Assembly: GCF_054482595.1 (NCBI RefSeq)
Contig: NZ_CM137008.1
DNA length: 64,000 nucleotides
Direction: 5' to 3' (one strand)
Under the pieces are notes generated by a model that saw only the letters and a program-made list of their open reading frames with translations, was not told the origin of the DNA and ran no database searches. Both the position numbers and the translations under genes were made by a program. The first letter of the stretch is position 1. Each line of letters begins with the position of its first letter. This document shows positions 10,631 to 52,858 of this stretch, one piece after another.

Positions 10631-11500
10631 TTATTTCAGAACAGTTTTCAGTGCTTCACCGATATCCGCCAGGCTGCGAACGGTTTTCACGCCTGCGGCT
10701 TCCAGAGCAGCGAATTTCTCATCCGCAGTCCCTTTCCCACCGGCAATGATGGCACCCGCGTGGCCCATACGTTTGCCTTTCGGCGCAGTCACACCAGCGA
10801 TGTAACCCACAACTGGCTTGGTAACGTGCTCTTTGATGTACGCAGCTGCTTCTTCTTCAGCGCTACCGCCGATCTCACCGATCATCACGATCGCTTCGGT
10901 CTGCGGATCTTTTTCGAACATTTCGAGAATGTCGATAAAGTTAGAGCCAGGGATCGGGTCACCGCCGATACCGACACAGGTCGACTGACCGAAACCGTAA
11001 TCCGTGGTCTGTTTAACCGCTTCATAGGTCAGTGTACCGGAACGGGAAACGATACCCACTTTACCCGGTTTGTGAATGTGACCCGGTTGGATACCAATTT
11101 TGCATTCACCCGGGGTGATAACGCCTGGGCAGTTCGGGCCGATCATACGAACGCCGGCTTCATCCAGTTTCACTTTCACAGTCAGCATATCCAGCGTCGG
11201 GATGCCTTCAGTGATGGTGATAATCAGTTTGATGCCTGCGTCGATGGCTTCCAGAATGGAGTCTTTGCAGAACGGTGCTGGTACGTAGATAACAGAAGCG
11301 GTAGCGCCAGTAGCAGCAACAGCTTCACGCACTGTGTTGAACACCGGCAGGCCGAGGTGGGTAGTACCGCCTTTACCTGGGGTTACGCCGCCAACCATTT
11401 TAGTGCCGTATGCAATGGCCTGTTCTGAGTGGAAAGTCCCCTGGCTACCGGTAAAGCCCTGGCAGATAACCTTGGTGTTTTTATCAATTAAAATGGACAT
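10631..11500 (-). CDS. sucD: Succinyl-CoA synthetase alpha subunit
   Basis: 289 aa, translation matches E. coli SucD as recalled ([45 protein letters not shown]...). Confidence 0.97.
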
Positions 11501-12666
11501 TATTTCCCCTCCACTGCGGCAACAACCTGCTGAGCTGCATCCGTCAGACCTTTTGCTGCAATAATATTCAGGCCGCTGTCAGCCAGTTTCTTCGCGCCGA
11601 GTTCGGCGTTGTTACCTTCCAGACGTACCACGACCGGTACGTTAACACCCACTTCCGCTACCGCGCCGATGATACCGTCAGCGATCAGGTCGCAACGAAC
11701 GATACCGCCGAAGATGTTAACCAGAACGGCTTTCACTTTGTCGTCAGAGAGAATGATTTTGAACGCTTCGGTTACACGTTCTTTGGTTGCGCCGCCGCCA
11801 ACGTCCAGGAAGTTAGCCGGTTCGCCGCCGTGCAGTTTAACGATGTCCATCGTACCCATCGCCAGACCTGCGCCGTTAACCATACAACCGATGTTACCGT
11901 CCAGCGCAACGTAGTTCAGTTCCCACTGTGCAGCCTGTGCTTCACGTGAATCTTCCTGCGACTGGTCACGCATTTCGCGCAGATCAGGCTGGCGGAACAG
12001 TGCGTTGCCATCAGCGCCCAGTTTGCCGTCGAGGCAAATCAGATCGCCCTGTTTGGTAATGACCAGCGGGTTGATTTCGATCAGCGCTAGGTCGCGCTCC
12101 AGGAAAATGGTCGCCAGGCCCATGAAGATTTTGGTGAACTGCTGAACCAGTTTACCTTCCAGACCCAGTTTGAACGCCAGCTCGCGTCCCTGATACGGCA
12201 TCGGGCCAGTCAGCGGATCAAGCGCAACTTTATGGATCAGGTGCGGAGTTTCTTCCGCCACTTTTTCGATTTCCACGCCGCCTTCGGTGGAGGCCATAAA
12301 GACCACACGACGGGAACTACGGTCTACAACGGCACCGAGATACAGCTCTTTAGCGATATCGGTCGCTGCTTCAACCAGAATCTGGTTAACCGGTTGGCCA
12401 TTGGCATCTGTTTGATACGTTACCAGACGCTTGCCGAGCCAGTTTTCTGCAAAAGCACGGATGTCTTCTTTGCTGTTTACAACTTTCACACCGCCCGCTT
12501 TACCGCGGCCACCAGCGTGAACCTGACATTTCACTACCCACGGACCGGCACCGATTTTTGAAGCGGCTTCTTCTGCTTCGCGCGGAGTAGTACAGGCATA
12601 ACCCACCGGTGCTGGTAAGCCATAGCGGGCAAACAGTTGTTTTGCCTGATATTCATGTAAGTTCAT
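11500..12666 (-). CDS. sucC: Succinyl-CoA synthetase beta subunit
   Basis: 388 aa, [61 protein letters not shown]...; 1-nt overlap with the sucD start. Confidence 0.97.
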
Positions 12667-12750
12667 GTGTTCTGTCCATCCTTCAGTAATCGTTATCTTT
12701 TAAACCGTAGACCGAATATTTCGTATCGCTCCCGGGTATTGTCGGTCACC

Positions 12751-12990
12751 CGTAGGCCTGATAAGACGCGCAAGCGTCGCATCTGGCATCGCTTGTCGGA
12801 TGCGGCGCAAGCGCCTTATCCGACCTACATCGGTGCTCCCCGTAGGCCTGATAAGACGTGTAAGCGTCGCATCAGGCATCGCTTGTCGGATGCGACGCGA
12901 GCGCCTTATCCGACCTACATCGGTGCTTCCCGTAGGCCTGATAAGACGCGTTAAGCGTCGCATCAGGCTTCAATTGCCGGAGAAGGCGAT
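12751..12990. repeat. Tandem ~90-bp BIME/REP array (about 2.5 copies) in the sucB-sucC spacer
   Basis: Unit starts at 12751, 12841 and 12931 (cgtaggcctgataagacg...); each unit holds REP-type palindromes (gcctgataagacg / cggatgcggcg...cgccttatccg). Confidence 0.85.
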
Positions 12991-13031
12991 AATGTCTTAC
13001 CCGGTCTACAGTGCAGGTGAAGCTTAAACTA

Positions 13032-14249
13032 CTAAACGTCCAGCAGCAGACGTGTCGGATCTTCCAGCAACTCTTTGATCGTTACCAGGAAGCCCACGGA
13101 TTCGCGACCATCGATCAGACGGTGATCGTAGGACAGCGCCAGATACATCATCGGCAGGATCTCAACCTGACCATTCACAGCCATCGGACGATCTTTGATA
13201 GCGTGCATACCCAGAATTGCGCTCTGCGGCGGGTTGATGATCGGCGTAGACATCAGGGAACCGAACACACCACCGTTGGTGATGGTGAAGTTACCACCGG
13301 TCAGATCTTCAACCGTCAGCTTGCCGTCACGGCCTTTAACTGCAAGCTCTTTGATTTTCTTCTCGATGTCTGCCATGCCGAGGGTATCGACATCACGCAG
13401 TACCGGCGTCACCAGGCCGCGCGGCGTAGAAACCGCCATGCTGACGTCGAAATAGTTGTGGTAAACCACGTCATCGCCGTCGATAGAAGCATTCACTTCC
13501 GGGTAACGTTTCAGGGCTTCAACCACCGCTTTCACGTAGAAGGACATAAAGCCCAGACGGATGCCGTGGCGTTTTTCAAACGCTTCACCGTACTGCTTAC
13601 GCAGATCCATAATCGGCTTCATGTTGACTTCGTTGAACGTGGTCAGCATGGCGGTGGAGTTTTTCGCTTCCAGCAGACGCTCTGCCACACGCTTACGCAG
13701 GCGAGTCATCGGGACACGTTTTTCACTACGTGCAGCCAGAGCCGGTTGCGCTGCCGAAGCAGCCGCTGCCGGAGCAGACTCTTTCGCCGGGGCTTTCGCC
13801 AGATGTTTTTCCACATCTTCACGGGTCAGACGACCACCCACACCGGTGCCTTTAATGGCGCTGGCGTCGAGGTTGTGTTCAGCCAGCAGGCGACGGATCG
13901 CCGGGCTTAACGCATCGTTGTTTTGCTCTTCCAGAGACGCCTGCTGGCGTTGCGCCGGTGTGGACGCTTTCTCTTCAGATTTGGCGCTGGTTTCTTTACC
14001 GGCGCTGTTGCCTTCACGCAGGCGACCAAGGATCTGACGAGACGTTACCGTTGTACCTTCATCTTCCAGAACCGCATCCAGAATGCCGTCTGCTGATGCC
14101 GGTACTTCCAGTACCACTTTGTCAGTTTCGATTTCTACCAGCACTTCATCACGTACGACTGCGTCGCCGGGTTTTTTATGCCAGGTTGCGACGGTGGCAT
14201 CGGCTACGGATTCAGGCAGGTCAGGGACCAGAATATCTACGCTACTCAT
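13032..14249 (-). CDS. sucB: 2-oxoglutarate dehydrogenase E2 (dihydrolipoyl succinyltransferase)
   Basis: 405 aa, lipoyl domain N-terminus ([29 protein letters not shown]...) and catalytic C-terminus. Confidence 0.97.
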
Positions 14250-14263
14250 TGTGTATCCTTTAT

Positions 14264-17065
14264 TTATTCGACGTTCAGCGCGTCATTAACCAGATCTTGT
14301 TGCTGTTTCTGGTGAACGGACATATACCCTACCGCCGGAGAGGCGGAGGCCGGGCGGCCTGCATAACGCAGAGAAGCCCCAAACGGAATCACTTCACGGA
14401 AATGATGCTGGCTGCAGTACCATGCGCCCTGGTTGAGCGGCTCTTCCTGGCACCAGACAAAATCCTTGACGTGAGCAAACTGCTGCAACACTTCCTGCAT
14501 CGCTTTATGCGGGAACGGGTAGAGTTGCTCGATACGCACAATGGCGACATCGTGTTGATTGTTCTTACGACGTTGTTCCAGCAGGTCGTAATAAACCTTA
14601 CCAGAACACATCACTACGCGCTTCACGCCCTTCGGATCAAGCTCGTCGATTTCACCGATGGCTGGCAGGAAGGTGCCGTTCGCCAGTTCTTCGAGGCTGG
14701 AAACCGCCAGCGGATGACGCAGCAGGGATTTCGGCGACATCACGACCAGCGGACGACGCATCCCGCGCAGCGCCTGACGACGCAGCATGTGGTAAACCTG
14801 TGCCGGGGTAGACGGTACGCACACCTGCATGTTTTGCTCAGCACAAAGTTGCAGATAACGTTCCAGACGCGCGGAGGAGTGCTCCGGCCCCTGCCCTTCG
14901 TAACCGTGCGGCAGCAACATCACCAGGCCACACATCCGGCCCCATTTCTGCTCGCCAGAGGAGATGAACTGGTCGATAACCACCTGTGCGCCGTTGGCGA
15001 AGTCACCGAACTGCGCTTCCCAGATGGTCAGGGTGCGTGGTTCTGCGGTGGCATAACCGTATTCAAACGCCAGCACGGCTTCTTCAGAAAGTACGGAGTC
15101 CCAGACACGGAACGCGCCCTGGCCGTTATGGATGTGTTGCAGCGGCGTGTAAGTGGAACCGTTAGACTGGTTGTGGATCACCGCGTGGCGGTGGAAGAAG
15201 GTACCGCGACCGGAGTCTTCACCCGACAGGCGAACCGGAATGCCTTCATCAACCAGCGTGGCGTAAGCGAGGTTTTCCGCGCCGCCCCAGTCGAACAGTT
15301 TCTCACCGGCTGCCATTGCCTGGCGATCGCCATAAATCTTGGCAACGCGAGACTGCATTTCAACTGCTTCCGGCACCGTGCTGATGCGTTTCGCCAGCTC
15401 CTGCAGGCGCTTCATCTCAACTTTGTTCGGGTACTCTTCGTCCCATTCGTGGTTGAGATACGGCGACCAGGTGAAAGAGTGCATGTTCATCGGACGCCAC
15501 TCTGCCACTACGCAATCGCCAGCATCCAGCGCATCGCGGTACAGGTTAACCATCTCGGTGGCATCTTCCAGCGTCGCCACTTTTTCCTGCTCCAGCTTGT
15601 CAGCATAGATTTTGCGCGGCGTCGGATGTTTTTTGATTTTCTGATACATCAGCGGCTGGGTTGCGCTCGGCTCGTCGGCTTCGTTGTGGCCGTGACGGCG
15701 GTAGCACACCAGGTCGATGAAGACATCACGTTTAAAGGTGTTACGGAAATCGAGCGCCAGACGGGTCACAAAGGCAACGGCTTCCGGATCATCCGCGTTA
15801 ACGTGGAAAATCGGTGCCTGAACCATCTTACCGATATCAGTACAGTACGGTGTAGAACGAGCATCCAGCGGATTAGAGGTGGTGAAACCAACCTGGTTGT
15901 TGATAACGATACGTACCGTACCGCCAACTTCATAACCACGCGCTTTCGACATGTTCAGAGTTTCCTGAACCACGCCCTGCCCGGTCACTGCGGCGTCACC
16001 GTGGATGGTGATTGGCAGCACTTTGTTGCTGCTCGGCTCATCAAGTCTGTCCAGACGGGCACGAACAGAACCGATAACTACCGGGCTTACAATCTCAAGG
16101 TGAGACGGGTTAAACGCCAGCGCCAGGTGCACCAGGCCGCCATCGGTCTGGAAGTCAGACGAGAAGCCCATGTGGTATTTCACGTCACCCGTGCCGAGGT
16201 GTTCTTTATGTTTACCGGCAAACTCGTCGAACAAGTCTTGCGGTTTTTTACCCAGCACGTTCACCAGCACGTTCAGACGACCACGGTGCGCCATCCCGAG
16301 AACCACTTCGCGGGTGCCGCTGTTGCCAGCGTGGCGAATCATCTCTTTAAGCATCGGGATTAACGCGTCACCGCCTTCCAGCGAGAAGCGTTTTGCGCCA
16401 GGGAATTTTGCGCCGAGGTAACGTTCAAGGCCTTCAGCGGCGGTCAGTTCGCTTAGGAAGCGTTTTTTCTCTTCGCTATTGAAAGTCGCGCGACCAGACT
16501 CGATACGCTGTTGGATCCAGCGTTTTTCTTCGGTGCTGGTGATGTGCATATACTCGGCACCAATCGGGCCGCAGTAGGTTTGCTTGAGGGCTTCCAGCAG
16601 CTCGCCGAGTTTCATGGTTTCTTTGCCGCTGGCAAATGAACCAACGTTGAAGGTCTCCTGGAAGTCTGCTTCTGTCAGATCGTGGAAAGACGGATCCAGA
16701 TCGGCCACTTTATCTTGCTGCCACAGTCCCAGCGGATCGAGATTCGCATGCTGGTGACCACGGAAGCGGTATGCGTTAATGAGCTGCAGGACTTTTACCT
16801 GCTTCACATTGGTGTCAGGGTCGGAGATCGTTGAAGAGTAACGTGAAGCGTCTTTCGCCAGGCGGCGGAAATATTCACGCGTTTGAGAGTGGAATTGATC
16901 CGGTTTGACTCCCGTACCAGGTAACTGCTGGAACGTCGAACGCCAGTTAGCGTCAACCGAGTCAGGATCGGTTAAGAAGTCTTCATAGAGCTGTTCTATC
17001 CAGCTCTGGTTTGCGCCAGAGAGGTAAGAAGAGTCCAACCAGGCTTTCAAAGCGCTGTTCTGCAT
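14264..17065 (-). CDS. sucA: 2-oxoglutarate dehydrogenase E1 component
   Basis: 933 aa, [50 protein letters not shown]... Confidence 0.97.
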
Positions 17066-17239: not shown

Positions 17240-17365
17240 GTTACGCCTGATGCGCTGCGCTTATCAGGCCTACGGGTAATGACTTGTAGGCCGGATAAGG
17301 CGTTCACGCCGCATCCGGCACTGGTTGCCTGATGCGACGCTTGCGCGTCTTATCAGGCCTACGGT
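17240..17365. repeat. REP/BIME palindromic elements in the sdhB-sucA intergenic region (which also carries the internal suc promoter)
   Basis: Several gcctgatgcg...cttatcaggcctac and ggccggataaggcgttcacgccgcatccggc palindromes. Confidence 0.8.
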
Positions 17366-52750: not shown

Positions 52751-52761
52751 GGGCTGAATTG

Positions 52762-52858
<97 letters not shown>

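Follow-up and report, generated by a model that had tools for sequence, protein, structure and literature searches.

A three-unit allele of the BIME-2 cluster in the sucB-sucC spacer of Escherichia coli

What kind of element is the tandem repeat that separates sucB from sucC, is it peculiar to one strain, and could it affect the operon in which it lies? The window (the whole 64-kb stretch of DNA that was analysed) carries both genes on its minus strand. The most probable answer, at roughly 0.85, is that the element represents the three-unit allele of the E. coli BIME-2 cluster between sucB and sucC, together with the roles proposed for it in gyrase action, in the fate of the transcript and in slippage. 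The kind of element, the variation in its copy number between strains and the sucB-sucC BIME-2 locus itself are all already described.

The original prediction was of a tandem duplication of about 90 bp between sucB and sucC, and this was recovered both by Tandem Repeats Finder and by a comparison of repeat families. The program reports a period of 90 bp with 2.4 copies, 93% matches and no indels at 12749-12968 (score 389), which is the sole tandem repeat in the 64-kb window to reach a score of at least 60. The comparison of repeat families gives two full 90-nt copies, at 12749-12838 and 12839-12928, which are 93% identical; because they differ at 6 of their 90 positions, the duplication in the window is not recent. 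A third copy starts at 12929, the initial 22 nt of which (12929-12950) are 100% identical, while the remainder is 73% identical at a spacing of 91 nt, that is, offset by one base. The prediction of three units with few substitutions is therefore right for two of them and wrong for the third, half of which is degenerate. The unit starts proposed in it (12751, 12841 and 12931) belong to the same array and are shifted in phase by 2 nt with respect to 12749, 12839 and 12929; its end at 12990 has to be moved, as this position falls inside a degenerate REP (12975-13009), and its spacer of 364 bp measures 365 bp (12667-13031).

Read in the sense of the transcript, the element consists of a degenerate y-like REP, then z2, y, z2, y and z2, and lastly a degenerate REP, so that three z2 and two y REPs stand between a degenerate REP at either end (Table 1). 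The first of these, Y0, is the decayed half of what had been taken for the third unit. The REP at the other extremity forms a right boundary that is common to the BIME-less allele (see below) and to other genera. GTAG or CTAC is present on every REP, and the linkers are 5 nt long between heads and 13-14 nt long between tails. Each of the five good REPs folds into an imperfect hairpin, with energies from -16 to -21.5 kcal/mol. Those y and z2 consensus patterns that have matches in the array are expected to give none by chance (100 shuffles). For the RNA of the whole spacer, the minimum free energy is -175.3 kcal/mol (z -8.9), and for that of the element (12707-13009), it is -150.8 kcal/mol (z -7.6).

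Table 1. Coordinates of the array, its component REPs, the neighbouring genes and the open reading frames, as positions in the window
Feature	Position	Strand	Remarks
Whole palindromic element, bounded by GTAG...CTAC	12707-13009	-	303 nt; BIME-2 array with a degenerate REP at either end
Degenerate y-like REP (Y0), GTAGACCGGGTAAGACATTATCGCCTTCTCCGGCA	12975-13009	-	weak hairpin, -8.3 kcal/mol; 73% identity to unit
z2 REP a, inverted orientation, CTAC end	12932-12969	-	hairpin, -21.5 kcal/mol
y REP 1, GTAG start	12884-12918	-	hairpin, -16.1 kcal/mol; y pattern match 12885-12918
z2 REP b	12842-12878	-	-17.9 kcal/mol; z2 pattern match 12842-12877, 1 mismatch
y REP 2	12794-12828	-	-18.8 kcal/mol; y pattern match 12795-12828
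z2 REP c	12752-12788	-	-16.3 kcal/mol; z2 pattern match 12752-12787, 1 mismatch
Degenerate terminal inverted REP ending CGGTCTAC	12707-12737	-	right boundary of the element
y + z2 pair, Rfam naRNA4 (RF02564) match	12845-12915	-	67.3 bits (gathering score 59.5)
y + z2 pair, Rfam naRNA4 (RF02564) match	12755-12825	-	74.8 bits (gathering score 59.5)
sucD	10631-11500	-	
sucC	11500-12666	-	downstream gene
sucC leader with ribosome-binding site AAGGA	12667-12706	-	40 nt, outside the repeat; cross-genus alignment
sucB stop TAG (13032-13034) and flank preceding the first REP	13010-13034	-	flank of 22 nt
sucB, annotated odhB (2-oxoglutarate dehydrogenase E2)	13032-14249	-	upstream gene
sucA	14264-17065	-	
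Open reading frame	12667-12954	+	95 aa
Open reading frame	12700-12963	-	87 aa
Open reading frame	12800-13027	+	75 aa
Open reading frame	12872-12973	-	

According to Ton-Hoang et al. (2012), BIME-2s combine z2 and y REPs in multiple tandem copies with a short linker, whereas BIME-1s combine z1 and y REPs in a single copy with a long L linker that contains an IHF site. In the window, inverted y and z2 REPs alternate, the head-to-head linker is only 5 nt long and there is no IHF-bearing L linker. The tandem copies are conserved within the locus (period 90, 93% matches), and the array lies wholly inside the 365-bp spacer with GTAG 5' of each imperfect palindrome. The idea of a REP-containing unit in a BIME array was thus correct and can be made more precise, since each 90-bp unit is a z2 REP with an inverted y REP, that is, a BIME-2. 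The BIME-1 reading, with its IHF site, was rejected on the basis of the z2-type REPs (37-38 nt), the short linkers, the tandem units and the lack of an IHF consensus; indeed, of the five matches to WATCAANNNNTTR in the window, none is within 12667-13031. An intrinsic (Rho-independent) terminator was also considered and rejected, as no terminator-like site (a G+C-rich hairpin with a U tract after it) was found on either strand of 12400-13300. A search of the spacer for promoter-like sites found none.

REPs also occur elsewhere in the window. A single BIME-2 unit upstream of sucA, presumably in the sdhB-sucA spacer, comprises a perfect y REP (17286-17319) and a perfect z2 REP (17327-17362), and isolated y-type REPs are present on the plus strand at 52761-52794 (1 mismatch) and 60181-60214 (0 mismatches to the y pattern). 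A match to the Rfam ES036 (CssrF) sRNA on the minus strand (34740-34782, 73.4 bits) adjoins a further y REP (34783-34816), which suggests that the ES036 family is a REP-associated sequence.

The flanks of the array have characteristics of their own. Tandem in-frame stops, TAG TAG, close sucB (13029-13034), and the first REP of the array begins 22 nt past the sucB stop; the effect of a REP on a stop codon that involves tmRNA requires the REP to be within about 15 nt of that codon. On the other side, the 40-nt leader of sucC (GGTTTAAAGATAACGATTACCTGAAGGATGGACAGAACAC) is almost invariant in Citrobacter, Salmonella, Klebsiella, Enterobacter and other genera (loci L010-L108), and its conservation far exceeds that of the remaining spacer. 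The pairing between Spot 42 and sucC's 5' end, which has been published, may be a constraint on this leader.

The original prediction also held that the number of units varies between strains. Ton-Hoang et al. (2012) had already described such variation in unit number at a given BIME locus, and a comparison of spacers in 5,426 complete E. coli genomes confirmed it here with alleles of 93, 274 and 365 bp. A 61-nt probe specific for the short allele matches 3,401 of these genomes, O157:H7 being among the carriers; their spacer is 93 bp long, has no BIME and contains, in place of the element, a 31-nt hairpin (GTAGACCGAC-11 nt-GTCGGTCTAC, -15.7 kcal/mol). Long alleles are present in 2,010 of the 5,426 genomes. 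The number of their units was obtained with a probe made of the two unique boundaries joined together, such that the span of the match reveals the number of units. This probe matched 1,902 genomes (a further 108 long-allele genomes, which it did not match, are outside the unit count), and in 59 evenly spaced rows of these 1,902, there were 39 alleles with three units (365 bp) and 20 with two (274 bp). The two-unit group in the sample includes the K-12 derivatives W3110, JM83 and HB101, and the spacer of K-12 MG1655 itself is 274 bp long with two units. None of the 59 sampled long alleles has one unit or four units, and hence the share of each of these two types in the long alleles is probably below about 5%. 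The rough shares are therefore about 63% without a BIME, about 23% with three units and about 12% with two; the three-unit allele of the window is a common one. In one strain with a partial probe match, BDSF8-3, the spacer is of the usual 365 bp and free of any IS insertion. Strains differ mainly in whether they carry the element at all, not in copy number alone, and spacer length (93, 274 or 365 bp) can serve as an easy marker of strains.

How might one allele have arisen from another? The two E. coli alleles have an unusual boundary in common, GTAGACCG...CGGTCTAC, which implies that one is derived from the other within the genus, in either direction. The central 15 nt of the short allele, ACGTGGATAGGGTGT, are absent from the long one, and the two therefore differ by the replacement of one sequence by another and not by a clean indel. 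In the hairpin of the 93-bp allele (L004 and L005, positions 368-460), the stem is of 12 bp (the GTAGACCGAC/GTCGGTCTAC arms plus two pairs) with a loop of 7 nt, and its outer 8 nt on each side recur at the ends of the BIME-bearing allele. As for changes in unit number, alignment shows that taking exactly one 91-nt unit away from the three-unit strain 2EC1 gives the K-12 allele; the junction lies within 27 nt that neighbouring units share. This is the product to be expected of slippage or unequal recombination, and units would be gained and lost at this locus by one or other of these processes acting between the 90-nt direct repeats.

The position of the element was followed in other species by a scan of species-representative genomes with the initial 23 nt of sucC, which yielded 104 loci, 65 of them with sucB upstream. 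The scan took in Escherichia whittamii and a truncated Escherichia sp. locus and left out E. albertii, E. fergusonii and E. marmotae. The spacers of the scanned loci are 69-152 nt long except in E. whittamii, where a spacer of 274 nt contains a two-unit BIME-2; the truncated Escherichia sp. locus shows the right end of the long allele. Of 68 spacers, 40 contain a palindrome bounded by GTAG...CTAC, namely 37 spacers of other species and the 3 E. coli alleles. It starts 21-26 nt past the sucB stop in all but two of the 40 and ends 37-42 nt before the sucC ATG (39-42 nt in all but one). Its length outside Escherichia is 27-33, 41, 50-52, 64-71 or 83 nt, and the long palindromes in Escherichia are of 212 or 303 nt; among the scanned loci, multi-unit arrays at this position are confined to Escherichia. 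By this comparison, the occupancy of the position by REP-type palindromes is old, and the content turns over. One locus labelled 'Enterobacter sp. 10-1' (L100) encodes a SucB C-terminus 100% identical to that of E. coli over the 60 residues compared and has an unrelated 121-nt spacer without a GTAG...CTAC element; its label or its history may be unusual.

What might such an array do? The work of Sutormin et al. (2019) bears directly on the K-12 allele. They describe multiple in vivo gyrase cleavage sites in the BIME-2 between sucC and sucB, which is among the BIME-2s that gyrase cuts most heavily in vivo, irrespective of transcription; they also report that cleavage favours y REPs and rises when transcription is blocked. 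In the portion of their table covered, the 166-bp K-12 element has 6, 4, 0 and 5 cleavage sites in the four conditions, and the neighbouring BIME-2 rows have 0 sites. The y REPs of the array, which lies in an operon that is long and highly transcribed, would be sites for the binding and cleavage of DNA by gyrase; one such REP would come with the extra unit.

The transcript offers another possible level of action, for which the best guide is REP325 between yjdM and yjdN. REP325 raises the mRNA of the upstream gene, yjdM, by stabilising it and cuts that of the downstream gene, yjdN, some 8-10-fold in a partly Rho-dependent manner. A REP preprint of 2026 adds that the effects of REPs are context-dependent and that half-lives are not uniformly changed by them. 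By analogy with REP325, the stable hairpins on the sdhCDAB-sucABCD transcript could slow 3'-to-5' decay upstream, in the sucAB part, and could partly attenuate transcription into sucCD; the sucAB:sucCD ratio would then be raised, as has been measured for the six-unit y/z2 array of REP325. An influence of the array on mRNA stability and operon polarity, as the original prediction had it, is plausible on these grounds. Any such function must be non-essential and the array may be near neutral, given that 63% of complete E. coli genomes have no BIME here.

Several other explanations have to be weighed against the BIME-2 cluster with local roles. One is that the repeat is an artefact of assembly or a private, recent duplication in a single strain. 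Beyond the general caution that repeats deserve, nothing speaks for it: the window matches the complete genome of E. coli DSM 103246 at 100% identity over the 501 bp that were compared; its haplotype, though a minority one, is matched at 99% or more in 211 genomes; three units are present in an estimated two-thirds of some 1,900 long alleles; and the 6 differences in 90 positions between the full units argue against a recent event. This explanation can be set aside with near certainty. It is just as hard to believe that the ORFs of 95, 87 and 75 aa encode small proteins, even though ORFs are present on both strands. RefSeq PGAP annotates no CDS over the array, no array ORF reaches the gathering score of a Pfam family, and 63% of genomes lack the region, the length of which changes in steps of 90 nt. 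Moreover, the ORFs stay open because a period of 90 nt is a multiple of three, so a frame free of stops in one unit recurs in phase in the next. They had been considered artefactual from the start, rightly so, and should not become gene calls. It is also improbable, if less extremely so, that the units are genes for RNAs of the naRNA4 type, which would bridge cruciform DNA with HU and thereby condense the chromosome. Two units on the transcribed strand do exceed the Rfam threshold (a covariance score of at least 59.5 bits), the third scoring 44.0 bits, and Qian et al. (2015) published a condensation of the nucleoid dependent on HU and naRNA4. However, RF02564 was modelled on REP325 (yjdM-yjdN), namely on its y-z2 unit, and the best match of the model in the window is the separate pair at sdhB-sucA (17286-17362, plus strand, 88.4 bits); this higher score means that the model recognises BIME-2 units in general and matches, in effect, any y-z2 pair. 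Furthermore, the REP preprint of 2026, whose group includes one of the authors of the original study, reports no measurable compaction of the nucleoid by REP325/naRNA4, and the sucB-sucC element is missing from most strains.

A more serious alternative is that the array is largely neutral or selfish, that is, repetitive DNA in a tolerant slot, spread or resized by RAYT/TnpA-REP or by slippage without any selected local effect. The element is dispensable, as most strains lack it (3,401 of 5,426 E. coli genomes), and the content of the slot differs between genera and between species. In addition, Ton-Hoang et al. (2012) showed that TnpA-REP binds GTAG-REPs and cuts at TGCC|TGAT and within CTAC, and both sequences are present in the z2 REPs of the window. 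Against this, the K-12 allele is a real gyrase site in vivo, according to Sutormin et al. (2019); a stable hairpin of some kind, found in 40 of 68 spacers at a constant distance from both genes, suggests that a structured element is favoured; and a selfish origin is, in any case, compatible with a local effect. On balance, neutrality has a substantial chance of being right, although somewhat less than an even one. A further and more tentative proposal, on which the odds are distinctly unfavourable, is that of a fixed slot between sucB and sucC, bounded by GTAG...CTAC in many genera of Enterobacteriaceae, in which the palindromic content has been replaced repeatedly (hairpins of 27-33 nt, one REP, two REPs and, in Escherichia, arrays of five or seven REPs), so that the split in E. 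coli (63% with the 31-nt hairpin, 37% with a BIME-2 of two or three units) would be a natural allelic series possibly setting the sucAB:sucCD ratio and the gyrase load. If selection does keep a structured element in this slot, both ratio and load could be tuned without touching coding sequences or promoters. With its three natural alleles, the locus would lend itself to testing whether expression ratios in an operon of central metabolism are adjusted by REP arrays.

The preferred reading, a three-unit allele of the known BIME-2 cluster, can finally be placed among the systems that it resembles. The closest is the K-12 BIME-2 at the same locus, listed as 'BIMEs2 ... sucB>-sucC>' by Sutormin et al. 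(2019), which has the same flanks, the same y/z2 architecture and the same degenerate terminal REPs. The K-12 allele contains two z2 REPs and one y REP in 274 bp, whereas the window has one extra 90-nt unit in 365 bp; the K-12-like alleles with three units are about 94% identical to the window and represent a different haplotype. REP325 likewise consists of tandem y-z2 units within an operon, between two co-oriented genes, but it has six of them and its effects on RNA have been measured. BIME-1s, also called RIB or RIP elements, share with the window array the pairing of inverted REPs in extragenic DNA; they differ in combining z1 with y around an L linker in a single copy, as opposed to z2 with y, 5-nt linkers and tandem repetition. 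The array is also similar to REPINs and to the REP doublets mobilised by RAYTs (Bertels and Rainey 2011; Ton-Hoang et al. 2012) in its inverted, GTAG-ended REP pairs, the type of substrate that TnpA-REP binds and cuts (Ton-Hoang et al. 2012). The difference here is that copy number at the sucB-sucC locus changes in steps of whole units, which homology-driven slippage explains equally well.
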